Source: Parcubacteria group bacterium
GTDB lineage: Bacteria > Patescibacteriota > Minisyncoccia > Moranbacterales > UBA11712
Assembly: GCA_041659685.1 (NCBI GenBank)
Contig: JBAZXV010000001.1
Location: 24,226 to 88,225 of the forward strand
DNA length: 64,000 nucleotides
Direction of reading: 5' to 3'
The notes below the pieces were generated by a model that saw nothing but the letters and a program-made list of their open reading frames with translations, had not been told where the DNA came from and did no database searches. Position numbers and translations under genes: made by a program. Within the stretch, counting starts at the first letter, position 1. Every line of letters starts with the position of its first letter. Below are positions 1 through 57,960 of the stretch, piece after piece.

Positions 1-72
1 ATAACGAAATTTCATGTCGAAGAAATAATTTTATATATCGCGGAATAATCATGTAAATGACCATTGAAGATA

Positions 73-1161
73 ATGAAAAAAAATGAATGTATCAATGTCA
101 CAAAGACATTTCTCCCGCCGATTAGGAAGTATCAAAAATATATAAAAAAAATATGGGAGAGTAATCAGCTCACGAATCAGGGTCCAATATTGAAACAACT
201 CGAATCAAATTTAAAAAAATACTTAGAAGTTAAGTATTTGCATTTTGTTACTAATGGAACCGTTGCTTTGCAACTATCACTCAAGGCTTTGGATATAGAA
301 GATGGAGAGATAATAACGACTCCCTTTTCTTATGTGGCGACAACATCATCCATTTTATGGGAAAGGTGCGAGCCAATTTTCGTGGATATAGAGAAAAACG
401 GATTTTCCATTGATCCCGATAAAATAGAGAAAGCGATAACGAAAAAAACTAAGGCAATCTTGGCAGTTCATGTCTTCGGATTTCCTTGTGATATTGAGAA
501 AATCGCAAAAATAGCCAAGAAGTATGATTTGAAAGTTATTTATGATAGTGCGCACGCTTTTGGGTCTTTGTATAAGGGAAGGCCATTGCCAATGTATGGG
601 GACATTTCGATCTGCAGTTTCCATTCTACCAAACTGTTCCATACAATCGAAGGCGGATGTGTTATTTCAAAGAGTAAGAAGGTTAGCGAAAAATTAAAAC
701 TAATGAAAAGGTTTGGTCACACCGGGGATATCCATTACAGCCTTGGAATAAACGCCAAGGCTTCCGAATTTCAAGCGGCAATGGGACTGTGCAATTTGGA
801 GTATGTCGATAAAATTATTAAAGCAAGAAAAAGGATTTGCTGCCTGTATGATAAATTTCTTAATAATATATTTACGAAACCAAAAGCCAGGAAAGGACTG
901 TCATATAACTACGCATATTATCCCATAGTTTTTAAAAGCGAAAAAGAACTTCGGAATGTTTTTAAATCATTAAAAAAAGAGAATATTTATCCCAGGCGTT
1001 ATTTCTATCCATCTCTTAATACTTTGCCATATTTAAGAAAAGAACAGAATTGTCCGGTTTCAGAAAGTGTTTCTAAAAGAATTGCGTGTCTGCCCTTATA
1101 TCCGGGAATAAAAACCGAAATCGTCAAAAAAATAAGCGCTATTATTAAATCGAGCTTATGA
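73..1161 (+). CDS. DegT/DnrJ/EryC1/StrS-family PLP-dependent sugar aminotransferase
   Basis: ORF track 64..1161 starts at TTG; first ATG is at 73 (MKKNECINV). Family-typical motifs 'DSAHAFGS' and 'SFHSTKLFHTIEGG' (PLP-Lys region). Length ~360 aa fits family. Confidence 0.8.
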   Translation: MKKNECINVTKTFLPPIRKYQKYIKKIWESNQLTNQGPILKQLESNLKKYLEVKYLHFVTNGTVALQLSLKALDIEDGEIITTPFSYVATTSSILWERCEPIFVDIEKNGFSIDPDKIEKAITKKTKAILAVHVFGFPCDIEKIAKIAKKYDLKVIYDSAHAFGSLYKGRPLPMYGDISICSFHSTKLFHTIEGGCVISKSKKVSEKLKLMKRFGHTGDIHYSLGINAKASEFQAAMGLCNLEYVDKIIKARKRICCLYDKFLNNIFTKPKARKGLSYNYAYYPIVFKSEKELRNVFKSLKKENIYPRRYFYPSLNTLPYLRKEQNCPVSESVSKRIACLPLYPGIKTEIVKKISAIIKSSL

Positions 1162-1197
1162 AAATAATTATCGGAAAATTAAAAATGACAAAATAGT

Positions 1198-2493
1198 ATG
1201 AAAAATATCTTATTAACGGGCCAATGCACTCTTCATAAGGGCAGGATGGAATCCGGCAATATCGGAAATTACTATATTCTGGAGCCGCTAATACAGCAGA
1301 TAAAAAAAACGTTTCCAGGAGTCGATTTGCAAACAACATTCCAACTGACCGCGTCGTTTTGCAAAAGGGAGAAGGTTATATCTTTGCCGATGAACCTATA
1401 TTATTCTTGGTCCGAAAATGATTTAGATCTGGCCCTCAAAGAGTTGGGTATTGCTCTGATATTCCACAAAACAAATAAATTGATTTCCAAAACGCCCTTT
1501 ATAAGTGCAGTCATGGATAGTGATATGGTAATCGACTTTAGCGGAGATATTTGGGGCGACAATGCGGATTTGGTCGGAGATAACAGATTTTTGATCGGCT
1601 CAATAAAAGACAGAGTTGCTCAACTTTTAAAAAAGAAAACCGTTATGTTGGCTGGTTCCCCTGGTCCTTTCAAGGATGAGAATATCCTGAAGTTTGCTAA
1701 AGAAGTATATTCAGGTTTCGATTTAGTGACAAACAGAGAGTCAATCAGTAAAAAACTTTTAAGAAAGCAATCGTTTGACGTTTCCCGGACGAAGGACTAT
1801 GCCTGCCCGGCTTTTCTTTTCGAGTCCAAAAAAAATATCGAGAAAATTCTTGAGAAAGAAGGCTTGAACAATAGAAGCGAAACAAAGCTAGGCTTTATAT
1901 TATGCGGATGGAACTTCACAAAGGGTCCCTATAATAAGCCAAGAAGAAAAGATGCGGATTTTCTTCCGTTTGTGAAATTGATAGAGCACATATCCCGAAA
2001 TTATAGCCCCTCGATATATCTTCTTTCTCATTCAAACGGATTTGATGTCGTTAAAGACAAGTTTAAACTGAAACACGGACGAGACTATCCGATAATCAAA
2101 CAATTGGAAAACATTTTGAGGAAAAGGAAAGTTGCGAAAAAAATTCATTCCCTGAACGGTATTTATGATCCTTGGACAACCAAAGCCTTGATTGGAAATT
2201 TCGATATGCTTGTCAGTGGAAGAATTCACGGATCTGTGGCCGGTCTTTCCCAAATGATCCCTACGGTTATGATCGACTACGGCCATGAACCGAAAGCCCA
2301 CAAAATAAAAGGGTTCGCCGAAGTTGTTGGAGTAGGGAAATACGTCGCTGATCCGGTGCGGAAAAATGATCTGATAAATAAATTTGATAAATGTTGGAGT
2401 AAAAAAGATGAAATAAAAAAACTTCTGAAGAAAAGAATACCAAGGGTTAAGAAGCTAGCTTTACAAAATTTTAGCGACTTAAGAAATATATAG
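1198..2493 (+). CDS. polysaccharide pyruvyl transferase family protein (CsaB/WcaK-like)
   Basis: 431 aa. C-terminal 'LVSGRIHGSVAGLSQMIPTVMIDYGHEPK' resembles the conserved R-H block of the PS_pyruv_trans family. ATG start 37 nt after previous stop. Confidence 0.6.
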   Translation: MKNILLTGQCTLHKGRMESGNIGNYYILEPLIQQIKKTFPGVDLQTTFQLTASFCKREKVISLPMNLYYSWSENDLDLALKELGIALIFHKTNKLISKTPFISAVMDSDMVIDFSGDIWGDNADLVGDNRFLIGSIKDRVAQLLKKKTVMLAGSPGPFKDENILKFAKEVYSGFDLVTNRESISKKLLRKQSFDVSRTKDYACPAFLFESKKNIEKILEKEGLNNRSETKLGFILCGWNFTKGPYNKPRRKDADFLPFVKLIEHISRNYSPSIYLLSHSNGFDVVKDKFKLKHGRDYPIIKQLENILRKRKVAKKIHSLNGIYDPWTTKALIGNFDMLVSGRIHGSVAGLSQMIPTVMIDYGHEPKAHKIKGFAEVVGVGKYVADPVRKNDLINKFDKCWSKKDEIKKLLKKRIPRVKKLALQNFSDLRNI

Positions 2494-2495
2494 AC

Positions 2496-3197
2496 ATGAA
2501 AATAGGCATCATGCAGCCTTATTTATTCCCTTACATCGGATATTTTCAATTAATTAAAGCAGTTGATATTTTTGTTGTTCATGACGATGTTCAATGGATA
2601 AAAGGGGGCTGGATTAATAGGAACAGAATATTATTCGATAATCAGGTAAAAACGTTGACTTTGGCAGTCAAAAAAAGAAGTAACTACGACAAAATAAACC
2701 AATTTGAGGTATCGGAAGATCACAATAATAGAAATCTATACCTCAACAGAATAGCAAGCGCTTATGCGAAAGCCCCTTTTTTCAAACAAGTATATCCGAT
2801 TATTGAAGGGATTATACTGATGCGCACTTGTAATCTGAGCGATCTGATTGTCTATTCTCTTGAAACGGTAAAACGCTATCTTGAGATTGATACGAAGATA
2901 ATATTGTCGTCAGATATCGAGAAGAATAATTCACTGTGCGCCCAGGAGCGAGTCATAAACATATGCAAATCGCTGAACTCCGCAACTTATACTAATCCAA
3001 TTGGCGGAATGGAACTATATAAAAAAGAGGACTTCGCTGAACATAATTTGAAGCTGTATTTTATAAAGCCGGATGAAATTAGATATGAACAATTTGGCCA
3101 AGGTAGCATAGCCAACTTATCGATCATCGACGTTCTTATGTTCAATAACCAACAAACAATAAGGAGTATGCTAAACGACTATATCCTAATTGAATAA
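2496..3197 (+). CDS. WbqC-like family protein (aminosugar O-antigen pathway accessory)
   Basis: N-terminus 'MKIGIMQPYLFPYIGYFQLI' is the hallmark start of WbqC-like proteins. 233 aa. Starts 3 nt after upstream stop. Confidence 0.65.
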   Translation: MKIGIMQPYLFPYIGYFQLIKAVDIFVVHDDVQWIKGGWINRNRILFDNQVKTLTLAVKKRSNYDKINQFEVSEDHNNRNLYLNRIASAYAKAPFFKQVYPIIEGIILMRTCNLSDLIVYSLETVKRYLEIDTKIILSSDIEKNNSLCAQERVINICKSLNSATYTNPIGGMELYKKEDFAEHNLKLYFIKPDEIRYEQFGQGSIANLSIIDVLMFNNQQTIRSMLNDYILIE

Positions 3198-3213
3198 TAA
3201 TATTGACAAGGTC

Positions 3214-3642
3214 ATGAAATATAAGGAAAATGCCGCCGTCTTTAAAGATATTATTGATCATATTGATAACTGTGATATCAAGGTGATCCTTGAAAAGGAT
3301 GTGAACATAAAAGAATACGTAAATAAATTATTGCATTACGCCGAGCGTTTTGAAGCTTGGCAGGGAAATAAATTAGTCGGATTAGTAGCCGCTTATCTGA
3401 ATGATTATCAATCGAAACAGGCTTTTATCACGTATGTTGGTGTAAGGAAAAGCTCTATCGGCCGAGGAATCGCGAGCTCGCTGTTAGAGCAAGTTTTAAG
3501 TAAAGCAAAAGAACTTCAATTTTTAAAAATTAATCTTGAAGTAAATAGTGACAATGTTCCAGCAATCAAACTATATGAAAAATTTGGCTTCAGCGCCACA
3601 GATACAAGTTTATCAAAAATAACTATGTCAAAATTGCTGTGA
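3214..3642 (+). CDS. GNAT-family N-acetyltransferase
   Basis: Track ORF 3190..3642 starts at TTG; first ATG at 3214 (MKYKENAAV). GNAT motif A 'VRKSSIGRGIASSLLEQVL' (R-x-x-G-x-G/A) and C-terminal 'YEKFGF'. Confidence 0.65.
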   Translation: MKYKENAAVFKDIIDHIDNCDIKVILEKDVNIKEYVNKLLHYAERFEAWQGNKLVGLVAAYLNDYQSKQAFITYVGVRKSSIGRGIASSLLEQVLSKAKELQFLKINLEVNSDNVPAIKLYEKFGFSATDTSLSKITMSKLL

Positions 3643-4550
3643 TAAATACTCCCAAAATCTCAATTCTTTGCTCAACATACAATCATGAGAAATACATAAG
3701 GCAGACCCTTGAGACTTTTGTGATGCAAAAAACCAATTTCAATTTCGAGGTGCTGGTACATGATGATGCTTCAACAGACGGTACCCAGTCGGTTATTAAG
3801 GAGTTTGAGGAAAAATATCCGGGCATAGTGAAGTCAGTTTTTCAAATAGAAAATCAATATTCGAAGGGAATTCGAAGGGCTATAACGAAATTTCTTTTGC
3901 CTATAGCAGAAGGGGAATATATTCTGCTTTGCAACGGAGATGATTATTTTACCGATGAAAATAAGCTACAAATCCAAGCTGATTTTCTGGATAAAAATCC
4001 GGAATATTCGATGTGTTTTCACCCGACAAGATGGTTTTTTGAAAACAACGAGGAACCAGATTCCATTTTTCCTGAATATAAGGAGGGCGCCAAATTTACA
4101 ACGGAAAAGTTGCTGGAAGGCAATTTTATGAACACGAACGCCGTGATGTATCGGCGCCAAGATTATTCAAGGATTACCAAAAAAAATATTGTTCCAGGAG
4201 ACTGGTATCTGCACTTATATCATGCAAGATTTGGTAGAATCGGATTTATTAATAAAGTGATGGCTGCTTATCGCAGACACGAAAACGGAATCTGGTGGAG
4301 TTCTTATAAAAATCCGGACATGATACTTAAAACTCATGGATCCGCACATCTGACTATGTATTTTGAACTACTAAAATTATATCCCGAAAAAAAATATAGG
4401 GACATAATTTTCGGCAACGTAAGCGGATTATTTCGGCAGCTTGAGAGAATTGACAAAAAAGGGGGAGTCAAAATACTCGAAAGAATAGCTTCAGAATTTC
4501 CAGGCGAGATATTTGATTTTTTGATGTATAATATGAATAATAGGAAATGA
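3639..4550 (+). CDS. family-2 glycosyltransferase (GT-A fold)
   Basis: 'ISILCSTYNHEKYIRQTLETFVMQKTNFNFEVLVHDDASTDGT' is a canonical GT2 N-terminal block; 'LCNGDDYF' DxD-like. GTG start overlapping upstream stop by 4 nt. Confidence 0.8.
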   Translation: MINTPKISILCSTYNHEKYIRQTLETFVMQKTNFNFEVLVHDDASTDGTQSVIKEFEEKYPGIVKSVFQIENQYSKGIRRAITKFLLPIAEGEYILLCNGDDYFTDENKLQIQADFLDKNPEYSMCFHPTRWFFENNEEPDSIFPEYKEGAKFTTEKLLEGNFMNTNAVMYRRQDYSRITKKNIVPGDWYLHLYHARFGRIGFINKVMAAYRRHENGIWWSSYKNPDMILKTHGSAHLTMYFELLKLYPEKKYRDIIFGNVSGLFRQLERIDKKGGVKILERIASEFPGEIFDFLMYNMNNRK

Positions 4551-4614: not shown

Positions 4615-7590
4615 ATGAAATTTACAGGAGAAAGAATGATGCCGGAAATAAACAAAGACGGGGAAATATATCTGGAGCATATGAACCGGTATTTTTTCGC
4701 ATCCCAATTTGTCAAAGGAAAAAATGTTCTGGATATAGCCTGTGGCACCGGTTACGGATCGTTTCATCTCTCCAAAGCCGGTGCGGAGAGCGTCATAGGC
4801 GTGGATATATCGGAGGAAGCAATAGATTACTGCAAAGAAAAATATTCGTCGCCGAACGTGAAATATCTTGTTGGAACCGTTGAAAGTATTCCATTGGAAG
4901 ATGATTCTGTCGACGTAGTCGTATCAATGGAAACCATCGAGCACGTGAGGGAACCTGCGCAGAAACGATTCATGCAGGAAGTCAAGAGAGTATTAAGAAA
5001 GGGCGGTTTATTCATTGTTTCAACTCCGAACAATTTGATTCATCCGAAAGGCAATCCTTACCACAAGAAAGAATTTAGACCCGACGAATTTGAAAAATTC
5101 TTGAAAAACTATTTCTCGCACTCAGTTGCAATGTATCAAGACCACATCGAATGCAATTTTATTTTTTCCAAAGATTATATCAATTCGGAAATTATCAGTA
5201 GCGACAGCAAAGAAATTCAATTGAGGAAAATCGGTGATATGAATTATTTAGATAGTGAGTTCGTAGTGGCTGTTTGTTCTAATCAGAAAATAAATAAGAA
5301 AAAATTGGAAGGTTATGTAACGCTATTCAATAAAAGGACAAAATTTATCTATGAAGAATACGCAAAAGAATTCAACAAATTGAGAGAAGCTGAATTAGCC
5401 GATCTTCTCAGAATTGCGGATGACCGAGGAAAAGAGATAGGAAGACTCAACAATCTAATTAAATTGAAAGATGAAAAAATAAGAGTGGAAGAAAAAACAA
5501 TTGTGCGGGAGAAAAAAATGTTTGAGATGGAAAGATCAGAAATACAAAAAAAAGACCAGGAAATTAATAGCCTTGACCGAACAATCCAGCAAAAAAATCA
5601 AATGATCCAGCAGAAAGACCAAGCAATTCAGAAAAGAGATCAGGAAATTCAGAAAAGAGACCAAGCAATTCAGAAAAAAGATCAGGAAATTGACTTCATT
5701 AAATCATCAAAATTCTGGAAGGCAAGGAAACTTTATGTGAGGATAAAATATTTTCGGCCAGGCAATGTCGCGGAATTGCTTTCAAGGGCAATGGATGTTT
5801 TGAAAAAAGACGGAGCCAGGAAATTTTTGTGGTCATTATATAAGTATATTCTTCATGGCAGGGGATATTTCAGGAAAACGGAAGAGAAAGCGGATAAAAT
5901 CGGCGATGATATATTTTTTTCCGACTACGAGATTTGGATTCAAAAAAATGAAATATGGAATGAAGGAGAGATAGAGAAAGAGATAGGGAAATTCACATAT
6001 AATCCCAAAATATCCATTGTTTTGCCGGTTCTTGATGCCGATGAAATTTTTCTCAGGAAAGCAATTTTTTCGGTCATTTATCAGGATTACCAAAATTGGG
6101 AACTTTGTGTTGCCGATAACGCATCGACGAAAAAAATCATAAGAAAGATATTGCAGGATTTTGAGAAAAAAGATTCCAGAATAAAAGTCTTGTTTTTGGA
6201 CAAGCGGAAGAGTTTTTCTGCCGCAATGAACGAGGCGGCAGAAATGGCAACCGGAGATTTCATCGCTTTTCTGGGACAGCATGACGAACTATCTCCCGCC
6301 GCTTTTTTTGAAAACGTAAAATTATTGAATATCAAATCAAAATTTGATTTAATATACAGCGATGAGGACAAGGTGAATGAAAGCGGCACCAGATATGATT
6401 ATAACTTCAAGCCGGATTGGAGTCCGGAACTCCTTATAAGTAAGGATTATATCGGAAATTTTGCGCTGATAAGGAAAAAATTATTCGACAAGATAAAGGG
6501 TTTCCGGGAAGAGTTTGATGGAGCGCATGCTTACGATTTTATGTTAAGATTGTCAGAGATTTCCAGCAGGATTGCGCATATACCCCGTATCCTTTATCAT
6601 TCCATAATTTTACCTGCGCCAATTTCAGAGTTGGAAAAGATAAGACTTGTCGAAATGGGCAAGCAGGCCTTGCAAGAAGCTTTTGAAAGAAGGAAAATAA
6701 AAGGCAAAGCGATTGTGTCGGATCTGGCCGAAAAAGATCATTTGGGAATTTACAGTATCAAATTCAATCCCGCAGATTTCAAAGAGAAAGTAACGATAAT
6801 CATACCGACCAAGGACAAGATTAATTTGCTGAAAAAATGCATAGAGAGCATTAAAAAGAAAACCAACTACGATAATTATAATATTCTTGTAGTTGATAAC
6901 AATAGCGAGAAAAAAGAAACTTTTGATTTCTTGAAAAAAGAAAAAATAAATTTTGTCAGCATCCCGACTGAAAATTTTAATTATGCAAGAATTCATAATC
7001 TCGTGATGAAAAAAGTTGATACCGAACTGGTGCTGTTTTTAAATAACGATACGGAGGTTATCTCTCCTGACTGGCTGCTGAATATGGTCGGCACAATCTC
7101 GCTGAATGAAAAAATTGGAGTCGTAGGGGCGAAACTAATATACGGGGACAAGAAAGTCCAGCATTGCGGAGTCATTGTCGGACTTAGCCATTTAACTGCC
7201 GATCACGCCAATAAGTTGATTGATTATAAATCGCCCGGTTACCAGGGCTATAATTTGGCAATACGCAATTATTCGGCGGTGACGGCGGCCTGCATGCTGA
7301 CCAAAAGAAGCTTATTTGAAAAAGTCAAAGGCTTCGACGAAGAAAATCTCGCGGTCGCTTTCAACGATGTTGATTATTGTTTGAAGCTAATAGCTTCCGG
7401 ACATAGAATTGTTTGTAATCCGAACGCACTGCTTTTTCATCACGAGAGCAAAAGCCGGGGGGGGTCCGGGCATAATCTCAAAGAGCCAAAATATTTCAGC
7501 GAAAAATGGGAAAAGGTGACCCGGAAAGATCCATTTTATAACATTAATTTTTCACTCGAAGATGGTTTATTCAGGCTCAAAAAAAACTAA
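4615..7590 (+). CDS. multidomain fusion: class I SAM methyltransferase, heptad coiled coil, GT2, GT2
   Basis: N-terminal MTase motif I 'VLDIACGTGYGSFHL' and post-I 'VDISEEA'; 'LRKGGLFIVSTPN'. Residues ~250-350 are KQ/E-rich heptads ('IQKRDQE' repeated). Two GT2 cores: 'ISIVLPVLDADEIFLRKAIFSVIYQDYQNWELCVADNAS' and 'VTIIIPTKDKINLLKKCIESIKKKTNYDNYNILVVDNNS' ... 'FNDVDYCLK'. 991 aa. Confidence 0.75.
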   Translation: MKFTGERMMPEINKDGEIYLEHMNRYFFASQFVKGKNVLDIACGTGYGSFHLSKAGAESVIGVDISEEAIDYCKEKYSSPNVKYLVGTVESIPLEDDSVDVVVSMETIEHVREPAQKRFMQEVKRVLRKGGLFIVSTPNNLIHPKGNPYHKKEFRPDEFEKFLKNYFSHSVAMYQDHIECNFIFSKDYINSEIISSDSKEIQLRKIGDMNYLDSEFVVAVCSNQKINKKKLEGYVTLFNKRTKFIYEEYAKEFNKLREAELADLLRIADDRGKEIGRLNNLIKLKDEKIRVEEKTIVREKKMFEMERSEIQKKDQEINSLDRTIQQKNQMIQQKDQAIQKRDQEIQKRDQAIQKKDQEIDFIKSSKFWKARKLYVRIKYFRPGNVAELLSRAMDVLKKDGARKFLWSLYKYILHGRGYFRKTEEKADKIGDDIFFSDYEIWIQKNEIWNEGEIEKEIGKFTYNPKISIVLPVLDADEIFLRKAIFSVIYQDYQNWELCVADNASTKKIIRKILQDFEKKDSRIKVLFLDKRKSFSAAMNEAAEMATGDFIAFLGQHDELSPAAFFENVKLLNIKSKFDLIYSDEDKVNESGTRYDYNFKPDWSPELLISKDYIGNFALIRKKLFDKIKGFREEFDGAHAYDFMLRLSEISSRIAHIPRILYHSIILPAPISELEKIRLVEMGKQALQEAFERRKIKGKAIVSDLAEKDHLGIYSIKFNPADFKEKVTIIIPTKDKINLLKKCIESIKKKTNYDNYNILVVDNNSEKKETFDFLKKEKINFVSIPTENFNYARIHNLVMKKVDTELVLFLNNDTEVISPDWLLNMVGTISLNEKIGVVGAKLIYGDKKVQHCGVIVGLSHLTADHANKLIDYKSPGYQGYNLAIRNYSAVTAACMLTKRSLFEKVKGFDEENLAVAFNDVDYCLKLIASGHRIVCNPNALLFHHESKSRGGSGHNLKEPKYFSEKWEKVTRKDPFYNINFSLEDGLFRLKKN
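5536..5690 (+). repeat. tandem 21-nt repeats (about 6-7 copies) encoding IQK(K/R)DQ(E/A) heptads within the coiled-coil segment of the MT-GT fusion
   Basis: Seen directly: 'attcagaaaagagatcaggaa' / 'attcagaaaagagaccaagca' / 'attcagaaaaaagatcaggaa' in tandem, in frame. Confidence 0.8.
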
Positions 7591-10500
7591 CAGAAAGAGC
7601 ATTCTATTAGTCACTCATAATCTGAATTTGGAAGGCGCGCCGCTGTTTCTTTTTAATTTGGCCAAGGGGTTGAAAAAAATGGGATACTATGTCAATCTGC
7701 TCTCCCCTTCGGACGGACCTCTGAAAGACACTTTCCTGAGGGAAGGGATTGATGTCGACATATCTGATTTTGCGGCGAAAGAGTTTGACAGTTCCAGTTT
7801 CAAGGGAAAATATGTCGCCATTATAGTCAACACGATTGTCGGATACAAATTCCTGAGCAAAATTGATCTTAAAAAAGAAAAAACAATCTGGTGCCTGCAT
7901 GAGAGTGAAAGAGAGATATATTTCAGGGCTTTTCCCGATTTGGAAAAAAGCATATTTGCTCGGGTCGGCAAAGTCGTTTTTTCTTCCAAGGCCACGAGGG
8001 AAGTCTATGAAGATCTGAATATCAGCGGTAATTTCACGATCATAAATACCGTCGGCGACTGGAAAGAAATAGACAATTATTTGAAAAACAATTCAAAAGA
8101 AAAAGTGAGAGAAAGATATGGATTTAAGGAAAGCGATGTGCTGATTAGTCAGATTGGTACAATTTGTCCGAGAAAAGGGCAGTTTGAACTAACTGAGGCG
8201 GCGGTTTCCATCTTGAAAAAATCAAACAACCCAAATATAAAATTTCTTTTGATCGGCGGGGGAAGAGGATATGAGCTCGAAAAAACAATTCGCAAGCTGA
8301 TAAGCGCAAATGGCCTTCGGGATCGAATAATCATAGTCAATGAAACCGAACAAATATTTGATTACTATTTGATGAGCGATATTTTTATCTGTAATTCATA
8401 TATTGAAGCGTTTCCGCTAAGCATTCTCGAGGCGATGGCGTTCAGCTTGCCGATTATTTCGACGGACGTCTATGGGATTTCGGAACAGATTGAAGACGGG
8501 AAAGACGGGCTCTTGATTATGGCCGGAGACAAAAAGGAGCTTGAGAAAAAAATTCTGTATTTACTGGAAAACAAGAAAAAAGCGAAAGAGTTGGGAAAGA
8601 ATGCCAGGAAGAAAATAGATTATGAATTTGGCTTTGATGAAATGATAAACAAATACAGCCGGTTGATTTCCAGTAAGGCATCCGGCGCACATCTAAAGGT
8701 CTCTGTTGTCGTGCCAAACTATAACTACGAAAATTTTTTGGAGGAGAGATTACGGTCTATTGTTCTCCAAACCTATAAGCCATACGAGATAATATTTTTG
8801 GATGATAACTCCAAAGATGGCAGTGTTGAGCTTGCAAAGAATTTTCTGTCAAAGATCGATATTCCCCATAAAATCATAAAGAACGAATCAAATGTCGGGT
8901 GCTTCAAACAATGGGCAAGAGGTGTCCGTGAAGCAGTCGGCGATCTTATTTGGATTGCGGAGGCTGACGATTCCTGCGAACCGGACTTGCTGGAAGAGTT
9001 GGCTACTAAATTCGAAGATCCCGAGATGGGCCTTGCTTATACTCAGTCCAGAAGGATTGACGAATTTGGAAAAAAAGAAGAAACATATCTGCCTTATCTC
9101 GAATCGATTCCGGGAGCGGGCAGCCGCTGGAAAAAAGATTATATAAATTCCGGTGCAGATGAAATTTCCAAGTATTTAATAATAAAAAATACCATTGTTA
9201 ATGCCAGTGCAGTCCTGATGCGAAAGAGTCTGCTTGTGGATTTAGGGGAGAATATTGGGGAGGGATTAAGCCAGGCAGGCGACTGGATCACTTATGTTCG
9301 GATTCTTTCCAAATCGAAAATTGCGTTCGTGGCCGCTCCTTTGAATTATCATCGTCATCACAGCAAAACGATTGTTTCCCGTTCCGGCGAAAATACCGAA
9401 GCAAAAGCAAAACAATTGATCGATGAAACGCTCTACGTGCAAAAATTTATTTTATCCCGCTTCAAGGTGAATCGAAGGCGTTTGACCTTCGCTCTTGAAC
9501 ATCTGAAATTAGTTTTTAGAAATAATTTCAGAAAAGAATTAGACGCTTCTTCTGAATATTCAGATAAGCTGAAAGATTATTATGAGGCCGCAAAAAATTC
9601 GCAAAAAAGAATATTATTCTTTTCAACTAATGATGGGTGGGGAGGATCGGAAGTGGCATGCGCCAAAATGGCGCAAAGCTTTGCTGCAGCAGGATGGCGC
9701 GTTGCTCTGGTAATGAGAAAGCATGATCCGCGGCCTGATCTGCTTAATTCCATTGATTCGGGCAGTTCGATCGAATTATTCGAGAGAGAACCTGGCGACT
9801 ATTGCAACTCAGATGAAACATCTGAATTTGTAAATGAATTTGATGCCGACATAGTTTATATCTCTCAGGGACATGCGTTTGAATCGGCTGAACTTATGCG
9901 GTGGTGCAAAAAAAATGAATTCAAATATGTAAATTTTATACCGCTGGTGACGGAATACCAGCTGACATTTGTGAATGACAAAAAGGATATCGAAAAAAAT
10001 GGAGAGCTCCTTCGAGCTTCGAAAAAAATATTTCTGGACAACCAAAATGCCAAAAAAGTAATGCGTAAGATGTTCAATATCGCATTTGATAATTTTAAAA
10101 TTATTCGCAACGGGTTTGACGTCCAATATCACCAGGAATTTGTTTGGAATGAACCAAAGGGTGATGAATTTAAGCTAGCGTTTATAGGAAGACTGGAGAA
10201 CGTGCACAAGGGGCTGGATATGCTGATCGAAGTTCTTTCTATGAAAAAGTGGAAAGGAAGACCTCTTAAGGTGATGACATACGGTCATGGCCCATCTGAA
10301 GAATCCATCAGGCAAACACTGGAAAGGAATAAGATGAGTAATTTTGTTTTATGCGGATATACGAACAATCTGAAAGATTCAATTCAAGGGGTCCATGGGG
10401 TGATTTTTCCTTCCAGAATGGAGGGTACGCCTATTTCGCTTGTAGACAGTCTCCTGTGCTACCGAATGGCAATCGTAACCCCTGTGGGCGGCATGCCGGA

Positions 10501-10699
10501 AATGATAGCTGACGGATTAAACGGTTTTGTGGCAAAATCAATTTCTGCAAGAGGTATTGATGAGTGTCTGGAATGGGCATGGAAAAAAAGAAGGGAGTGG
10601 AAAAAGTTGGGCGAAAACGCAGGAAAAATAGTGCGTGATAAAGTCCCTGAATTTCCTCATAAGCAGAGCATCGAAGAAATTGAAAAACTATTAAGCTAA
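7562..10699 (+). CDS. tri-domain glycosyltransferase fusion (GT4-like, GT2, GT4-like)
   Basis: 1045 aa. N-terminal GT4 E-x7-E region 'EAFPLSILEAMAFSLPIISTDVYGISEQIEDGKDGLL'. Central GT2 'VSVVVPNYNYENFLEERLRSIVLQTYKPYEIIFLDDNSKDGS'. C-terminal GT4 'RMEGTPISLVDSLLCYRMAIVTPVGGMPEMIADGLNGFV'. Overlaps upstream gene by 29 nt. Confidence 0.75.
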   Translation: MVYSGSKKTNRKSILLVTHNLNLEGAPLFLFNLAKGLKKMGYYVNLLSPSDGPLKDTFLREGIDVDISDFAAKEFDSSSFKGKYVAIIVNTIVGYKFLSKIDLKKEKTIWCLHESEREIYFRAFPDLEKSIFARVGKVVFSSKATREVYEDLNISGNFTIINTVGDWKEIDNYLKNNSKEKVRERYGFKESDVLISQIGTICPRKGQFELTEAAVSILKKSNNPNIKFLLIGGGRGYELEKTIRKLISANGLRDRIIIVNETEQIFDYYLMSDIFICNSYIEAFPLSILEAMAFSLPIISTDVYGISEQIEDGKDGLLIMAGDKKELEKKILYLLENKKKAKELGKNARKKIDYEFGFDEMINKYSRLISSKASGAHLKVSVVVPNYNYENFLEERLRSIVLQTYKPYEIIFLDDNSKDGSVELAKNFLSKIDIPHKIIKNESNVGCFKQWARGVREAVGDLIWIAEADDSCEPDLLEELATKFEDPEMGLAYTQSRRIDEFGKKEETYLPYLESIPGAGSRWKKDYINSGADEISKYLIIKNTIVNASAVLMRKSLLVDLGENIGEGLSQAGDWITYVRILSKSKIAFVAAPLNYHRHHSKTIVSRSGENTEAKAKQLIDETLYVQKFILSRFKVNRRRLTFALEHLKLVFRNNFRKELDASSEYSDKLKDYYEAAKNSQKRILFFSTNDGWGGSEVACAKMAQSFAAAGWRVALVMRKHDPRPDLLNSIDSGSSIELFEREPGDYCNSDETSEFVNEFDADIVYISQGHAFESAELMRWCKKNEFKYVNFIPLVTEYQLTFVNDKKDIEKNGELLRASKKIFLDNQNAKKVMRKMFNIAFDNFKIIRNGFDVQYHQEFVWNEPKGDEFKLAFIGRLENVHKGLDMLIEVLSMKKWKGRPLKVMTYGHGPSEESIRQTLERNKMSNFVLCGYTNNLKDSIQGVHGVIFPSRMEGTPISLVDSLLCYRMAIVTPVGGMPEMIADGLNGFVAKSISARGIDECLEWAWKKRREWKKLGENAGKIVRDKVPEFPHKQSIEEIEKLLS

Positions 10700-10704
10700 A
10701 TATA

Positions 10705-11646
10705 ATGCAAAAAAAGAAAATATTGATTCTCGGCGCGGACGGTTTTCTTGGCAGCAACCTTGCCAAATCTTTGCTGGCGGACGGAAAATATGAGATCAGA
10801 GCGTTCGATCTTTTTAGGGACGGAATCAGCCGGAATCTGGCAGGGCTTGAGAAAAAACTTGAAATATTCCCGGGTAATTTTCTCAACCGGGAAGACATCA
10901 GGAGGGCTCTCAGGGGAATCGATTTTGTTTTTCACTATATCTCCCTTACAACGCCCGGATCATCAATGAGTGAGCCTCTTATTGACGTTGACACGAATAT
11001 CCGGGGCACAGTTGTTTTGCTTGAAGAGTGCGCCAGGGCGAAAGTGAAAAGGATAATATTTTCTTCCTCCGGAGGCGCGATATACGGAAACCAGGAAAAG
11101 AAAAAATTGAACGAAGACGATCCGCAAAATCCAATTTCCCCCTATGCGATATCAAAACTTACAATCGAAAAATATCTGGAATATTTCAGGCTTAACCATG
11201 GCCTTGATTATTTGATTCTGCGCTACTCCAATCCGTACGGGCCGGGACAGAATATCGTCGGAAGCCAGGGAATCATTCCCATATTCCTAAATTTGGTCAA
11301 GCAAAATAAACCAATTACGGTTTTTGGAGACGGAGAGAACACGAGGGATTATATTTTTATTGATGATGCGATTGAAAACACGAAAAAAATAGCGTTCAAG
11401 CGAGGGGTGGGACATTACATATATAATTTGGGAAAAGGCGAGGGAGAGACAATCAATGATGTGATTGATGTTATAAAAAAAGTGACGGGAGAAAAAATAA
11501 AAATTAAAAAAATGCCCGCAAGGAGCGTTGATGTGAGGAGAATTGTGCTTGGCACAGAGAGAATAAAAAAGGAAATTAATTATTCTCTTAACACTAATTT
11601 AGAAAGGGGAATCAAAAAGACCCTGGACTGGATCAGGAGCAGATAA
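10705..11646 (+). CDS. NAD-dependent epimerase/dehydratase (extended SDR)
   Basis: 'ILILGADGFLGSNL' Rossmann GxxGxxG; 'YAISKLTIE' Y-x3-K catalytic motif; 313 aa. Confidence 0.8.
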   Translation: MQKKKILILGADGFLGSNLAKSLLADGKYEIRAFDLFRDGISRNLAGLEKKLEIFPGNFLNREDIRRALRGIDFVFHYISLTTPGSSMSEPLIDVDTNIRGTVVLLEECARAKVKRIIFSSSGGAIYGNQEKKKLNEDDPQNPISPYAISKLTIEKYLEYFRLNHGLDYLILRYSNPYGPGQNIVGSQGIIPIFLNLVKQNKPITVFGDGENTRDYIFIDDAIENTKKIAFKRGVGHYIYNLGKGEGETINDVIDVIKKVTGEKIKIKKMPARSVDVRRIVLGTERIKKEINYSLNTNLERGIKKTLDWIRSR

Positions 11647-11703: not shown

Positions 11704-13404
11704 TCAATTTTCGTGTTTGCGGTTTTTGCTGATAATTTTGTCCTCTATCCAAAGAGTGGTCGGAATAAGACTTAAGGATATAAAGAGAAAAATAAGGGGA
11801 TATATGGGACTCAAATAGAGAATGATGATTGAGTGAAATGCTGATACATTAATAATTGATAACAGGATAATTCTGGCAAATATTGCTCCTAAAAGTGAAA
11901 GGGCAATAATCCAGGGAATGTTTTGTATAATTTTTCCTTTCAGGAAGGTTATAAAAAAAATAATGGCGGATAAAAACAGAATGAAAGGCATAATAATTCG
12001 ATACAACTTTGTAATAAAATTCAATATTTCCAATTTGAAATGGCTGTTTTCCTTTGATGCCACATCAGCATAAGTTATGTGGCCGAACAATTGGAGAGAT
12101 TCGTTGTCGCCCACGCTTTCTGATGGCGTTGCAGTGAATCCTTCTAGCCCGGATATAAATACTACCGATTCGCGGACTGAATCTAGCATGGGCTTATTAT
12201 AATTGCTATTCCAGGGCGATGTCATGGATGCTCTTTTTGGGTAACAATCCAATTTTTTCTGGTCGCAGGCTGAATTTACTTCGTCAGCTAATCTCTGATA
12301 GTATTCAATGGCTTTTTTCCCGTTAGAATAATATCCGGCTTGGGCGACTGCATCCCGAAAGGTCCACATAAACCAACCCCCCTTAATCTCGTTCACTCCG
12401 TCTTTTTCCGAGTTCGTGATTGATGTGGCTGTCCATCCTTTTCCAAGATCACCTTCAAGAAACGGCTTTAATTCAGAAAAAGCCGGACTGAACGGATAAA
12501 TCTCAAGGCGTTTTTGGGTAGAAACCGGAACATCTTTTATCCACTGGCCGTCCTTCACCCTGGTCAGTGATCCGTAGGCGCTCAAAAATTGAGGAGCTTT
12601 GAACTCCACAACATTATAAATTCCATATTCGTAATAATTTATTGCCGAAACAAGATTGATCGAAAATAATAAAATTATAAATGGCAGAAAAATCAGGAAT
12701 ATTTTCGTTTTCAGCTGTTGCATTTTTTCTTTCCAAACCGTGTAAATAGAATAAACTGTCATGATCGCCAAAAGGGGGGACAGCCAGACGCCTTCCTCTC
12801 TTGTGAGCCAAAAGGCGGAAAGCGCGAAGCCAGCGATCAGGGACCATAAAAATATTCTTTGAGGCTTTTCTTTCATGCGCAGAGCCAAGCCGATAAAAAG
12901 AGCAGCCATTAAAAGTGTCAGAGGCTGATATATTCCTTCGCGAATAACTCTGGTGGCGGGATCATTTGCGAAACTTACAGGGTTAAATAAGACAATAATG
13001 TAGATCGCCATAAGAGGCCAGCGGCGTTTCTCGAAGACAGGTTTTAATCCGAGAACTAAAACGACAGAGGCTGCGATATAAAGCAAATGCTCTGAAACTA
13101 ACAAGGGAATATGAAGCGCATGATTAAGCGCAATCCACATCGGGTAAAACGGGCCCTTTGCCAGCGTCATGTTACTATATTCCCCAAGCCAATCCAGATG
13201 CATCAAATTCAAAGCCTGATTGATAAATAACCTGTCATCGTGTACCGCAAATCCTATGGCGTATTCATGCTGGCCGCCAACCAAAAACAGCTTAACGCCG
13301 GCCAGGGTAATGATGATAAGCCAAACCCAAAAAGAAAATCCACTCTTTTGATTCAAGAATTTGTTGACGCGATTCAGCTTGTTGATGATATTATTATTTT
13401 CCAT
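11704..13404 (-). CDS. polytopic membrane protein, putative GT-C-fold glycosyltransferase
   Basis: 566 aa, >10 predicted TM segments, first extracytoplasmic loop 'AVHDDRLFINQALN' (acidic motif as in GT-C enzymes). Start codon abuts stop of upstream GT2 (13406). Confidence 0.45.
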   Translation of the reverse strand: MENNNIINKLNRVNKFLNQKSGFSFWVWLIIITLAGVKLFLVGGQHEYAIGFAVHDDRLFINQALNLMHLDWLGEYSNMTLAKGPFYPMWIALNHALHIPLLVSEHLLYIAASVVLVLGLKPVFEKRRWPLMAIYIIVLFNPVSFANDPATRVIREGIYQPLTLLMAALFIGLALRMKEKPQRIFLWSLIAGFALSAFWLTREEGVWLSPLLAIMTVYSIYTVWKEKMQQLKTKIFLIFLPFIILLFSINLVSAINYYEYGIYNVVEFKAPQFLSAYGSLTRVKDGQWIKDVPVSTQKRLEIYPFSPAFSELKPFLEGDLGKGWTATSITNSEKDGVNEIKGGWFMWTFRDAVAQAGYYSNGKKAIEYYQRLADEVNSACDQKKLDCYPKRASMTSPWNSNYNKPMLDSVRESVVFISGLEGFTATPSESVGDNESLQLFGHITYADVASKENSHFKLEILNFITKLYRIIMPFILFLSAIIFFITFLKGKIIQNIPWIIALSLLGAIFARIILLSIINVSAFHSIIILYLSPIYPLIFLFISLSLIPTTLWIEDKIISKNRKHEN

Positions 13405-13405
13405 A

Positions 13406-14533
13406 TTACTCTTTTTCCATTACTGCTCTTAAAAAAGAAAAGGAAATGAAAGAAACTCCCATGAAGATGAAATAAAGGCCGAATATCGCAAGCCGGGAAA
13501 GATTGATGTCATGAAAACCGTTCTTTGCCCAATCCACGAAAATGACGGCGTCGGCCAGAATGCCCAGAAATAGGACAATTCCTCCGGTAACAAGGCTCTT
13601 TTCGAGAGTCACTTTTTTCATCCAGGTGACGATTTTATCCTTTGTATAATAATTATTCAAGTGAGAATAAAGCTTAATAATCATTCCCATTTCAAAAACC
13701 GATATGCCGACAATGCTCAGGGTGAGGCCGATAATCATGGAATGGACATCCATATAAATGTCGCCGAAAACGAAAGGGCCGCGAATTTGAAGAAGGAGTA
13801 AAATTGATCCAATGACAAAAGCAGTCAGAGCCGGCCAGATGAAAACGAAATTCGGGGCATAGAGGAGCATGAATTTCAGATGGCGCCAGCCGTCCCGCCA
13901 GGTGTTGAGATGCGGAGCTTTGTCTCTTTTGTCCCTGTAGAGAGTAATCGGAATTTCTTTGATTCGAAGCTTAAGGATGCCAGTTTTTATGATCATTTCG
14001 GAAGCAAACTCCATTCCGGCGGAAGAAAGGCGAAGTTTTTCAAAAGCCTTTTTTGTGAGGCCGCGCATGCCGCAGTTGCAATCCGATATTTTCGTGCCAA
14101 AAAACAGGTTTAAAACAAAAGTAAGGACAGGCGTTCCCAGATAGCGATGCAGAAAGGGCATAGCTCCGTCTTCGATCTTTCCCTTGAGTCTCGTTCCCAT
14201 CACGATATCATATCCTTCCCGGAGATATTTTACGAATTCATCAATCTCCTCGAAATTATAGGAATCATCGGCATCGCCCATGATTAAGAATTTTCCTCCG
14301 GCGTTTTCAAATCCGCATCGCAGGGCGTTTCCATAGCCCTTTTGGGGGCAATGAACAACTCTGGCACCGAGTGATTCGGCGACAGACACTGAATTATCGG
14401 TGGAGCCATTATCCGAAACAATTACCTCTCCGTCGATATTTAACCTTTTCAAGCTTTCCAACGCCTTTCTGATTACAATGGGAAGGGTTTTCTCCTCATT
14501 GAGACAGGGGATAATTATTGATAATTCAAGCAT
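13406..14533 (-). CDS. GT2 polyprenol-phosphate sugar synthase (ArnC/GtrB/Dpm1-like) with C-terminal TM helices
   Basis: 'LSIIIPCLNEEKTLP', 'VIVSDNGSTDNS', 'GYGNALRCGF', 'MGDADDSY', 'CGMRGLTKKAF'. Hydrophobic C-terminus (~4 TM). Confidence 0.8.
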   Translation of the reverse strand: MLELSIIIPCLNEEKTLPIVIRKALESLKRLNIDGEVIVSDNGSTDNSVSVAESLGARVVHCPQKGYGNALRCGFENAGGKFLIMGDADDSYNFEEIDEFVKYLREGYDIVMGTRLKGKIEDGAMPFLHRYLGTPVLTFVLNLFFGTKISDCNCGMRGLTKKAFEKLRLSSAGMEFASEMIIKTGILKLRIKEIPITLYRDKRDKAPHLNTWRDGWRHLKFMLLYAPNFVFIWPALTAFVIGSILLLLQIRGPFVFGDIYMDVHSMIIGLTLSIVGISVFEMGMIIKLYSHLNNYYTKDKIVTWMKKVTLEKSLVTGGIVLFLGILADAVIFVDWAKNGFHDINLSRLAIFGLYFIFMGVSFISFSFLRAVMEKE

Positions 14534-14647
14534 ATTTATTATTCTTTCTGCTATTATGTGATTATTATTCTAATCCTATTATCACTTATTTACAGTAAAT
14601 TGAAAAGAGAAATATCTTATATGCAACAAAATAAAGCAAATATTTTG

Positions 14648-16483
14648 TTACTTGAACACTTTTATGTTGGTTGAGTCGAATTTTTGGTCTATGTCGGATG
14701 ATTCTATCCGGAGGCTTATTAATCTTCTATGATAAACTTTTTCTAATTGATTAATATTTAAAGAAACAAGATTTGAGTTCGTAGTATCTGAGTTTTCTTC
14801 ACTAAATTCGCTGTCGCCTTCAAACAGATAGTATAACTTATCAGTTTCGCCCTCGTTCGGATTGAATAATATTACCGACAGATTATTCGTATCAATAATA
14901 AATCGATTATTATCAGAAGTGGCCGAGTATTCTGATTCAGATATCTCCTTGAGATCGTTCAATCCAATCATCGCATCAGAAGCATTAGCGGGGGTGGTTT
15001 CGCCTTCAATTTTTGTGTTTATGTATGTGTTGACTGCCTCTTTCTTTTGAAGTAATTTGATAAACTCAGAGTGGCCTTGATTGAGTTGGTATATGTACTC
15101 TAAATTTAAGGTAAGCGGAACCAGCGCCAAGGCTATGCCCAGTATTGAAAAAACAATCCTGGATTTTATTCCGGAAATCAAATAAAAAAGATAGCTAAAA
15201 AATATTGCGATCAAAACAATTATTGGGTGAAGGTGCCTCCCCATCATTGCATGCCAGTTTCCATAAAACGAAGCGGCTATTATTTGAAAAATTCCTCCGA
15301 TTGTACCCGCGCTCAAAATTAAAAAAAACAGAAATAATTTATAGCCTCTTTTTTTTCCAATAAAGTAAAGGCTAACGGCCAGCATCATGATTGCGCCAAT
15401 AATCCAAAGATAATTTAAATATCGCGCCAATTGGAAAAAATTCAGATTCCAATGCGGAAGAAAATTGATATTGGTTTCTTCGGGCACCCAGATTTGTTTC
15501 ATAAAAGTAGGAAATGATGATCGGACATAATTCAAATCAATATCTTTATGTCTCGGATTGTCAAATCCAAATTCTGCTTGCTGTACCGTTGCCTGTTTAT
15601 TGGCGGTAAAAGTTCCGTAGTGATTCTTATTGAAGAGAAGCCACGGAAAAATGATGAGAACTGCAACAAAGGAATAGATTAACGAATTAACTATAAAATT
15701 CTTTCTTTTTATCAGGAAAAATAAAAAAACCAATGGAACCACAAATAATACCGCAAATCTTGATAAAATAGCCAAGGCGGTAAAGATACCCATTATGGCC
15801 GCATCATTCGGGGATGCTTGCCGCTCAGGGCTGGCAATAAACTTGCTCATCCACCAAAAAATTAATGAAACAAAGACAACTGGCAGTATGGAATTACCGA
15901 TAGTGACTGCGCGAACGACGATCGAGGGGGTAAATCCGACTATTATTAAGGCCGCAAGAGCGATTAAAAGCTTTTTCCGGACGAATAAGTGATTAATATT
16001 TTCAAATATCTTATAAGCAACGAAAACCAGTGCAAGCAGCTGTATTACTCCCAGAAATCTTAAGAAAAAAGTTTTATAAACAAAACTTGCTCCCGCTGCC
16101 TTATAGAAAGGCAATGCGAGCAGATAATATAAGGGTGGCTGGAAGGCTTCGTATTGCATGCCGGCTAAGCCGTTAGTTTTTGGATCAACCTTAAAAATAT
16201 TACTATCAACGTGCCACTGAAAATTTATGATTTTACCATCAGTGTAATCTGTGAGCAACGGCAATCGCCCATAATCATCCATGAATGTAATGTAAGCAAA
16301 ATGTGCCGACTCATCTACCGGATTGAAATACGGCATTAAAAACATATACATTATTCCGTTAACCAGAAGGATTGCCAAAATAATCCAAATGAAGTATTTC
16401 TTAAAGGGAACAGGGTCGTAAAAAAGAGCAGCGCAAAAAAGGCCAAAAATTAAAATAGTAGGAATATAGAACAATAAAGGCAT
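14648..16483 (-). CDS. GT-C membrane glycosyltransferase (PMT_2/ArnT-like)
   Basis: 611 aa polytopic. Loop-1 'FNPVDESAHFAYI' (DE motif) and 'YEAFQPPLYYLL' resembling the HPPL block of PMT/ArnT-family enzymes. Confidence 0.6.
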   Translation of the reverse strand: MPLLFYIPTILIFGLFCAALFYDPVPFKKYFIWIILAILLVNGIMYMFLMPYFNPVDESAHFAYITFMDDYGRLPLLTDYTDGKIINFQWHVDSNIFKVDPKTNGLAGMQYEAFQPPLYYLLALPFYKAAGASFVYKTFFLRFLGVIQLLALVFVAYKIFENINHLFVRKKLLIALAALIIVGFTPSIVVRAVTIGNSILPVVFVSLIFWWMSKFIASPERQASPNDAAIMGIFTALAILSRFAVLFVVPLVFLFFLIKRKNFIVNSLIYSFVAVLIIFPWLLFNKNHYGTFTANKQATVQQAEFGFDNPRHKDIDLNYVRSSFPTFMKQIWVPEETNINFLPHWNLNFFQLARYLNYLWIIGAIMMLAVSLYFIGKKRGYKLFLFFLILSAGTIGGIFQIIAASFYGNWHAMMGRHLHPIIVLIAIFFSYLFYLISGIKSRIVFSILGIALALVPLTLNLEYIYQLNQGHSEFIKLLQKKEAVNTYINTKIEGETTPANASDAMIGLNDLKEISESEYSATSDNNRFIIDTNNLSVILFNPNEGETDKLYYLFEGDSEFSEENSDTTNSNLVSLNINQLEKVYHRRLISLRIESSDIDQKFDSTNIKVFK

Positions 16484-16504
16484 TCCGCTCGAGATTAAGA
16501 TTAA

Positions 16505-17926: not shown

Positions 17927-17947
17927 TTTATGCTTTTTTATATTAAA

Positions 17948-18991: not shown

Positions 18992-19433
18992 TTTGTTTAA
19001 TTATTTTGATATTGCTGTTAAAAGCAAAATATTTTATAAGAGTGAAATTGACTAAGACCGCTGCTCCAGTGGCGATAATTTTTGAAAAAAATAAACTATC
19101 AAATTTTGCTGTTCCGATCAAAAATATCAAAACTGCTTCATTGGTTGCCAGCCCTCCAATACTCGAAGCATAATGCCGAAAAATAGCTGTCCAAAGAGAC
19201 AGTGTTTTGCGATCGAAAATGAATGCATTTGAGAGAATAAAATTAGTTATAGTTCCAAGCGTGAAACTCAGAAATACGGCGATTCTGTAGTCTATTGAAA
19301 ATGATTTTGCGAGAATCATAAAAAATCCGACATCAACAATTGCGGCAAATCCTCCTGCGAAGATATAGCGAAAAAATTGTATATGAACAGAATCGGTCTT
19401 ATTTTTAAAATATTTGTTTATTAGTTTTTGCAT
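18978..19433 (-). CDS. GtrA-family small membrane protein (polyprenol-P-sugar flippase-like)
   Basis: 151 aa, 4 TM, 'FFRYIFAGGFAAIVDVGFFMIL' typical GtrA N-terminus. 14-nt overlap with downstream epimerase. Confidence 0.6.
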   Translation of the reverse strand: MQKLINKYFKNKTDSVHIQFFRYIFAGGFAAIVDVGFFMILAKSFSIDYRIAVFLSFTLGTITNFILSNAFIFDRKTLSLWTAIFRHYASSIGGLATNEAVLIFLIGTAKFDSLFFSKIIATGAAVLVNFTLIKYFAFNSNIKIIKQNVYE

Positions 19434-19637
19434 TAAGCTTGATTATTTCCTTCTGAAGTTATTATTTTTTATATCTCAATAATTCCCTTATATATTAGCA
19501 AATTTATCAAAAAAGCAATAATCGAGAGCCTTATTCCTGTCGATTTTTTCCTCCTGAAATCTTAATGAAATATTTCTACCTATTCGATATTTATTGAGAC
19601 TTTAATTTCTGTTGTTGAATATATCCGGGATATTAGT

Positions 19638-20354: not shown

Positions 20355-20395
20355 CATAATCCCTTGGGCGTCCCTTGTGAAATATAAAACTCCTA

Positions 20396-45778: not shown

Positions 45779-45784
45779 TTGGTG

Positions 45785-57848: not shown

Positions 57849-57960
57849 ATTTTTAAGATTATGCTTCAAAATAAAAAACAAACAGCCTCGCGGCATCTTT
57901 TGTGAGTATATTATAAATCTTCCGAAATGGCAATGCAAATAATAGTTTTTTAAATTGAAA

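Follow-up and report, generated by a model that had tools for sequence, protein, structure and literature searches.

A methyltransferase, heptad-helix and twin GT2 fusion protein of a Parcubacteria bacterium as a candidate chain-terminating enzyme of polysaccharide assembly

In a stretch of 64,000 nucleotides from a Parcubacteria group bacterium (GTDB lineage Moranbacterales; GenBank assembly GCA_041659685.1, contig JBAZXV010000001.1, positions 24,226 to 88,225 of the forward strand), which is called the window here, one open reading frame (ORF) of the + strand (4615..7590, ATG start) encodes a protein of 991 amino acids (aa), in which a class I S-adenosylmethionine (SAM) methyltransferase, a long helix with heptad periodicity and two family 2 glycosyltransferase (GT2) domains are joined. 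The protein is deposited as NCBI MFA5925320.1, where its label is merely 'glycosyltransferase'. Our analysis suggests that it is probably a cytoplasmic, membrane-peripheral and trifunctional enzyme of a polysaccharide assembly system dependent on an ATP-binding cassette (ABC) transporter, in which a methyl cap would end the chain and the helix would serve as the ruler. This assignment draws on what was observed of the domain layout, the integrity of the catalytic motifs, the family membership and the genomic context of the homologues. The fused layout itself is already known, because ORF6 of Klebsiella pneumoniae O7 (PMC11231755) and WsaE (PMC2943079) share it, and WbbB is also earlier; the present protein is a further example, from a Parcubacteria host.

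Domain layout and catalytic motifs

A sequence-only reading of the window had described a single polypeptide with a class I methyltransferase and two GT2 domains, and this description is confirmed by Pfam as well as by an AlphaFold2 model of the full-length protein, which was built with a 66-sequence alignment and has a mean predicted local distance difference test score (pLDDT) of 87.1. In the Pfam scan, the class I methyltransferase models Methyltransf_25 (E 8.5e-27) and Methyltransf_11 (E 1.3e-26) match at residues ~30-145, Glycos_transf_2 matches in two stretches at 467-627 (E 1.7e-38), and the second GT2-type domain at 726-947 is matched by Glyco_tranf_2_2 and 2_3. In the model, an alpha/beta methyltransferase core that runs to a strand at 216-222 is followed by a helix at 240-363, a helical bundle at 366-457 and two GT-A domains; none of the hydrophobic segments of the protein is of membrane-spanning length. 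As for the start of the gene, position 4615 is favoured over 4636, the start in another assembly, because the N-terminal motif MKFTGER..PE is conserved in the homologues.

The methyltransferase domain has an intact SAM motif, VLDIACGTGYGS, which begins at D40, and outside this motif the residues H22, R25, Y26, E106, E109, H110, H150 and E153 are invariant in 50 members of the subfamily described below. A match to a non-sugar methyltransferase family, which the sequence-only reading had named as telling against itself, was not seen: none of the curated NCBIfam equivalog cut-offs for quinone, biotin, lipid and tRNA/RNA methylation is reached, the scores being 65.2 against a cut-off of 103 for UbiG, 55.6 against 158 for UbiE/MenG, 68.9 against 185 for BioC and 50.7 against 275 for CmoB. 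Moreover, neither Pfam nor NCBIfam finds a kinase family in the protein, and in the model only about 17 residues (fewer than 20) separate the last methyltransferase strand from the start of the helix at 240. This leaves no room for a kinase, and therefore a plain methyl cap is predicted, not a methylphosphate.

The helix at 240-363 is uninterrupted in the model over 124 residues, which as a fully extended coiled coil would measure about 18 nm, and its pLDDT of 47-75 is what is expected of a coiled coil modelled as a monomer. When residues 275-363 are written in rows of seven, the first column is occupied by isoleucine (once by phenylalanine) through 13 consecutive heptads; the hydrophobic periodicity at 3.5 residues was matched by 2 of 5000 shuffles and that at 7 residues by 24 of 5000, and there is no proline from residue 230 to 381. 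At the DNA level, the last three heptads (IQKRDQE, IQKRDQA and IQKKDQE) correspond to a 21-bp tandem repeat. Because the 'd' column is mostly K, R or E, there is one clear hydrophobic stripe in place of the canonical a/d pair. Thus of the heptad coiled coil of ~100 residues that had been claimed from the sequence, the long helix and its heptads stand, while the coiled coil itself is likely, judging by the model and the periodicity.

In an alignment of full-length homologues, P0004, P0023 and P0029 show coil gaps of exactly seven residues, which fits the expectation for a length change by whole heptads. The linker bundle after the helix opens with the family-conserved motif S-x-x-W-K (here SSKFWKARKLY), with which standalone methyltransferase-coil proteins also terminate. 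WbdD has an amphipathic membrane helix, and the basic and aromatic stretch just after the coil (residues 364-381) was examined as a possible counterpart; its hydrophobic moment, about 0.1, does not support this.

Both GT2 modules keep the acidic residues that are invariant in the family, namely D557, D583-E-D, N810-N-D and D918-V-D, the conserved motifs of module 2 being NND (810-812) and DVD (918-920) and the DXD equivalent of module 1 being H556-D557-E558. Module 1 matches the chondroitin polymerase K4CP in a phmmer search of the PDB (E 2e-16). In a Foldseek search against the PDB, a check that the sequence-only reading had asked for, the two-site GT-A polymerases heparosan synthase 2 (E 1e-22) and K4CP (E 5e-20) rank first, and GlfT2 and single-domain GT2 enzymes follow at lower ranks. 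Module 1 has G-Q-H-D-E in the place where most relatives have D-x-D-D-E, and one of the catalytic modules, with module 1 as the candidate, could be degenerate, in which case the protein would carry out fewer reactions than its domain count implies. We regard such a loss as extremely unlikely, as module 1 still has D557 and its other residues that are invariant in the family, the module is modelled at pLDDT above 95, and G-Q-H-D-E is also found in the two closest homologues, P0002 and P0004; a variant common to these three proteins suggests selection and not decay.

Relatives of the protein and their gene neighbourhoods

A word-indexed search of 5.8 billion proteins gave 394 relatives, of which the best 120 were compared segment by segment. 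The methyltransferase domain (residues 1-235) shares 36-58% identity with the N-terminal domains of more than 100 proteins composed of a methyltransferase, a spacer and glycosyltransferases (GTs), where spacers of 96-788 residues are followed by GT2 domains and often by GT4 domains too. In 89 of 109 such relatives the spacer contains a heptad-periodic, proline-free segment of at least 56 residues. The subfamily carries a signature made of FTGER, EH..RY and N.FH.KE, then the heptad spacer, and then S-x-x-W-K.

With residues 1-460 as the query, an exhaustive HMMER search against 1.84 billion cluster representatives (50%-identity clusters) matched 2,297 clusters at E<=1e-30 and 12,361 at E<=1e-10. 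Among the best 150 matches, 35 have at least 800 aa and are fusions, while 92 have fewer than 450 aa, some of these short entries being possibly fragments at contig ends. The short matches that were examined consist of the methyltransferase and the heptad region and end just past a Q/N-S-K-F-W-K motif. Because these stop after the motif while others run into GT domains, the N-terminal module, as judged from sequence comparison, has two forms, one a standalone, terminator-like form with a layout like WbdD, and the other fused with a polymerase as in WbbB and O7 ORF6. The same pattern is described for the orthologues of the N-terminal part of O7 ORF6, which are either joined to GT modules or stop after the coiled coil (PMC11231755).

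The closest relatives of the GT2-GT2 part (43-64% identity) bear other N-terminal modules before the coil, for example GT4 in P0009 and P0010, GT2 in P0008 and P0012, and Methyltransf_24 in P0013. The putative terminator module has apparently been swapped among these relatives, and such swapping matches the terminators known from Klebsiella, which are either methyltransferases or glycosyltransferases.

The genes around the relatives point to ABC-dependent export. The closest full-length homologue, P0002 (52-53% identity), lies in a locus, L002, that is syntenic with the window on the downstream side, and the gene directly upstream of it encodes the C-terminal part of a Wzt, with ABC_tran and Wzt_C (E 3.5e-24). 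The more distant P0011 (36% identity) and P0023 (32%) are directly downstream of a wzm gene (ABC2_membrane) and a wzt gene (ABC_tran with Wzt_C). In the Clostridiaceae locus L016 the order is wzm, wzt with Wzt_C, and then a methyltransferase-coil-GT2-GT2 gene, and in L011, from Peregrinibacteria of the candidate phyla radiation (CPR), wzm and wzt are beside the homologue; altogether the wzm/wzt feature is present in L002 (as Wzt), L004, L005, L011 and L016. Moreover, Wzm-like and Wzt-like genes both occur within 10 kb, mostly upstream, in about 45 of 80 GTDB loci with the GT2-GT2 module. The possible chain-terminating or length-ruler enzyme of the WbdD/WbbB kind, as proposed from the sequence, is thereby supported by the membership of the methyltransferase in this subfamily, by the heptad spacers of its members and by the wzm and Wzt_C-bearing wzt genes upstream in homologous loci.

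Comparison with known terminators and the proposed mechanism

WsaE, WbbB and O7 ORF6 were compared with our protein by published description, not by sequence alignment. ORF6 of K. pneumoniae O7, whose biochemistry was published in 2024, consists of a methyltransferase-kinase, a coiled coil and two GT2 modules, and in vitro its N-terminal part ends the chain with methylphosphate while the two GT2 modules add rhamnose (PMC11231755). Our protein has the layout of ORF6 minus the kinase and the carbohydrate-binding module (CBM): in ORF6, which is 1414 aa long, the methyltransferase is separated from the coil by a 223-residue kinase and a CBM-like domain, for which our protein offers no room. Furthermore ORF6 belongs to a Gram-negative O-antigen cluster with wzm/wzt, whereas our gene lies in a Parcubacteria genome with no local wzm/wzt seen.

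WsaE of Geobacillus stearothermophilus NRS 2004/3a is soluble and trifunctional, with an N-terminal 2-O-methyltransferase and two rhamnosyltransferase domains; its gene is the next one after wzm-wzt, and a role in ending the S-layer glycan has been proposed for its methyl cap (PMC2943079). The likeness lies in the N-terminal methyltransferase and two GT domains in one soluble protein, in the monoderm host with a glycan bound for a surface structure and not for lipopolysaccharide, and in the gene order, as wzm-wzt-wsaE is the same order as in L016, L005 and L002. WsaE differs in that it takes dTDP-rhamnose, whereas in the scanned ORFs of the window no nucleotidyltransferase or RmlC family (rmlA, rmlC) was found, only SDR-type epimerases and dehydratases.

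WbbB of K. pneumoniae O12 and Raoultella terrigena has a terminator that transfers 3-deoxy-D-manno-oct-2-ulosonic acid (Kdo), a coil and two GTs in one polypeptide, while in WbdD the methyltransferase(-kinase) stands alone with its coil (PMC11231755). Like WbbB, our protein carries a terminator-type module at its N-terminus, distal to two polymerising GT modules, with a putative coiled-coil ruler in between; the terminator of WbbB is a GT99 beta-Kdo transferase where ours is a methyltransferase, and WbbB is not among the top Foldseek matches of our protein. Compared with WbdD (E. coli O9a/O8; K. pneumoniae O3/O5), our protein lacks the kinase that O9a WbdD has, and its polymerase is fused, whereas WbdD has a separate polymerase and an amphipathic membrane-binding helix, of which no counterpart was detected here. 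In E. coli O8 the cap is a plain methyl group. Our protein therefore fails membership of WbdD (no kinase, polymerase fused) and of WbbB (no GT99). Among the features of the ORF6/WbbB type, it has the terminator-type module distal to the GTs and the two GT modules after the long helix, without a membrane span; wzm/wzt in the same cluster are absent from the window and the 780 nt upstream of it.

From these results we infer methyl capping, ruler action, export by an ABC transporter and the final acceptor, and with them each catalytic and length-control step of the following scheme. On the cytoplasmic side of the membrane, a glycan linked to polyprenol would be lengthened by the two GT2 modules at the C-terminus and by the GT modules that neighbouring genes encode. 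The N-terminal methyltransferase would be kept apart from the polymerase by the heptad helix, whose length is about 90-125 residues or about 13-18 nm, and would use SAM to methylate the non-reducing terminal sugar only of chains that have grown far enough to reach it. The cap, probably a plain methyl as in WsaE and not a methylphosphate given that no kinase domain is found, would halt elongation and then be recognised by the C-terminal domain of Wzt for export, with wzm and wzt probably encoded outside the window and most likely upstream. The acceptor of the exported polymer may be the wall, through an LCP-family ligase, or else a surface protein, through a ligase of the Wzy_C type; the window encodes both kinds of ligase.

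Several observations weigh against this scheme. The heptad 'd' positions are mostly polar and the long helix has but moderate pLDDT in the monomer model, module 1 departs from the DXD consensus as described above, and methylation by WsaE is independent of length in vitro. A second standalone class I methyltransferase (partial, 260 aa) is found directly upstream of the window start, before the aminotransferase gene, at 3-785 of a 10-kb Logan contig (L001), and the exporter genes are not seen locally.

Part of this evidence bears on another possibility, namely that the methyltransferase decorates sugars of the repeat unit without terminating the chain, that the helix serves for oligomerisation or as a scaffold, and that chain length is set otherwise. 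It is the most serious of three rivals, because the methyltransferase fold is silent on the acceptor and because of the length-independent methylation by WsaE. The fold matches include 3l8d (score 19.7, rank 1), RebM (3bus; 18.3, rank 7), CgnL (7pd7; 18.0, rank 15) and also WbdD (4ax8; 16.7, rank 50); the modelled fold is generic, so that a sugar acceptor is neither supported nor contradicted by it. The polar 'd' positions also weaken the coiled-coil call. Moreover, the methyltransferase on L001 might also methylate this glycan, and L004 carries four further methyltransferases, so methylation in such clusters is not limited to the cap. We nevertheless hold decoration to be unlikely. The layout of methyltransferase, heptad spacer and S-x-x-W-K is kept over thousands of clusters, and it co-occurs with a Wzt that bears the cap-binding Wzt_C domain. 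That it also exists standalone, without any GT, does not sit easily with an enzyme of simple decoration, and the exchange of its N-terminal module for glycosyltransferases is what one expects of terminators.

As for the exporter, Pfam scans of the window ORFs of at least 120 aa found no Wzm, Wzt or any ABC ATPase in the 64 kb and the 780 nt added upstream from L001, and tblastn with two Wzm and two Wzt proteins gave no match there at E<=1e-5. This agrees with the sequence-only reading, which had noted no ABC transporter in the window, and its suggestion to look for wzm/wzt in the flanking sequence yielded none in those 780 nt. In L002 the slot of wzt is immediately upstream, while in the window this slot is filled by the GT2 gene and a sugar-modification cassette, with the L001 methyltransferase before those; the simplest reading is therefore that wzm/wzt sit further upstream, outside the window.

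A system without any ABC transporter would explain the absence differently: a short lipid-linked oligosaccharide would be flipped by some other membrane protein and transferred to protein or wall, the fusion being a multi-GT assembly enzyme. This reading, which seems quite improbable to us, is favoured by the lack of an ABC ATPase over 64 kb and by the wealth of polytopic membrane proteins without a family, two Wzy_C-like proteins, GtrA and GT-C-like proteins in the window. However, the syntenic L002 has a wzt with Wzt_C immediately upstream, L011 shows wzm-wzt beside a homologue in another CPR lineage, and our view upstream of the gene spans only about 5.4 kb, including the 780 nt beyond the window. 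In addition, a search at permissive thresholds among the unassigned polytopic membrane proteins found no flippase-family match or ABC-2 permease, only weak matches to Wzy_C and to GT-C-like families (LA_3751/3752).

Surroundings of the gene and significance

The gene stands within a block of glycan genes on the + strand (Table 1). The GT4-GT2-GT4 architecture of the next gene, as read from the sequence alone, was recovered by Pfam; its first GT4 has 66% identity to a separate GT4 that comes after the orthologue in L002, and the epimerase that closes the block has 75% identity to its L002 counterpart. Scans for promoter and terminator consensus sequences over 1-12.5 kb gave counts equal to the shuffled expectation. 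The GC content is 0.36-0.40 over the first 12 kb, which contain the glycan operon, and 0.44-0.475 at 20-28 kb; low values of this kind are characteristic of polysaccharide gene clusters and could reflect lateral transfer.

Table 1. Positions of the gene, its parts and other glycan-related features in the window
Feature	Position	Strand	Basis
Whole gene: methyltransferase / heptad helix / GT2 / GT2, soluble	4615..7590	+	
Class I SAM methyltransferase domain, residues 1-235	4615..5319	+	
Single long helix, residues 240-363	5332..5703	+	AlphaFold2
13 unbroken heptads, residues 275-363	5437..5703	+	periodicity test
21-bp tandem DNA repeat, 3.2 copies	5625..5691	+	Tandem Repeats Finder (TRF)
Helical linker bundle, residues 366-457	5710..5985	+	AlphaFold2, alignment
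GT2 module 1, residues 462-715	5998..6759	+	Pfam, PDB phmmer, alignment
GT2 module 2, residues 716-991	6760..7587	+	Pfam, alignments
Sugar-modification cassette: DegT-type aminotransferase, pyruvyl transferase, WbqC-like protein, GNAT acetyltransferase	64..3642	+	
Polysaccharide pyruvyl transferase	1198-2493		
Single-domain GT2, 303 aa, upstream	3639..4550	+	Pfam
GT4-GT2-GT4 protein, 1045 aa, downstream, 29-nt overlap with the gene	7562..10699	+	Pfam
NAD-dependent sugar epimerase/dehydratase, closing the + strand block	10705..11646	+	
Protein with 8 transmembrane (TM) segments, no family	11704-13404	-	
AglJ/GtrB-like GT2 with four C-terminal TM segments	13406-14533	-	
12-TM protein, weak Wzy_C match	14648-16483	-	
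FAD oxidoreductase, PRK07208 family, 688 bits	16505-17926	-	
SDR	17948-18991	-	
GtrA	18978-19433	-	
GT2	19638-20564	-	
WecG/TagA-family transferase	42755-43501		
LCP-family ligase	56790-57968		

The window as a whole is dense in envelope-glycan genes, with about 20 GT domains, an LCP-family ligase, WecG/TagA, two Wzy_C-like proteins, GtrA and several GT-C-like membrane proteins. For example, the genes at 11704-20564 on the - strand resemble a multi-component extracytoplasmic glycosylation system, and in the same place L002 carries YfhO and GtrA. Together, the pyruvyl transferase, WecG/TagA and the LCP ligase are the toolkit with which Gram-positive bacteria make pyruvylated secondary cell-wall polymers; here it occurs in a member of the Parcubacteria. 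Two paralogous membrane glycosyltransferases of the GT-C PMT_2 type lie in tandem at 35381-37039 and 37124-38815, with 9 and 8 predicted TM segments. Besides the glycan genes, an ORF at 45779-47176 has a C39-like peptidase (residues 312-436) after a region matching tropomyosin and RNase Y N-terminal coiled-coil models (residues 36-157), and a sigma-70 ORF at 58140-61250 on the - strand (1036 aa) has sigma regions 2, 3 and 4 at residues 114-345, with about 690 C-terminal residues without a Pfam match, an unusually long extension for a sigma factor.

What distinguishes the present protein is its host lineage, the lack of a kinase domain, the missing local exporter, and the heptads with isoleucine at 'a' only, which come partly from a 21-bp DNA repeat. 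Taken jointly, these could describe a CPR enzyme that builds a length-defined, methyl-capped wall or S-layer glycan, exported without a Wzm/Wzt encoded in the cluster, by an 'a-only isoleucine' ruler tunable through slippage of the 21-bp repeat; so specific a combination strikes us as quite improbable. If it were true, slippage in the repeats could lengthen or shorten the ruler and quickly re-set the chain length of the glycan, and the host of such a capped glycan would be a CPR bacterium with a tiny genome and no outer membrane.

The current understanding of the mechanism is not changed by this protein. Its significance is rather that the coiled-coil terminator strategy for polysaccharide length, previously worked out in the O antigens of Klebsiella and E. 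coli and in the S-layer glycan of Geobacillus, would be extended to the Parcubacteria/Moranbacteria, whose envelope is essentially uncharacterised. Moreover, the motif-defined methyltransferase subfamily is useful for annotation, since it marks thousands of likely glycan terminators that are labelled only 'glycosyltransferase' or 'UbiE-like methylase'.

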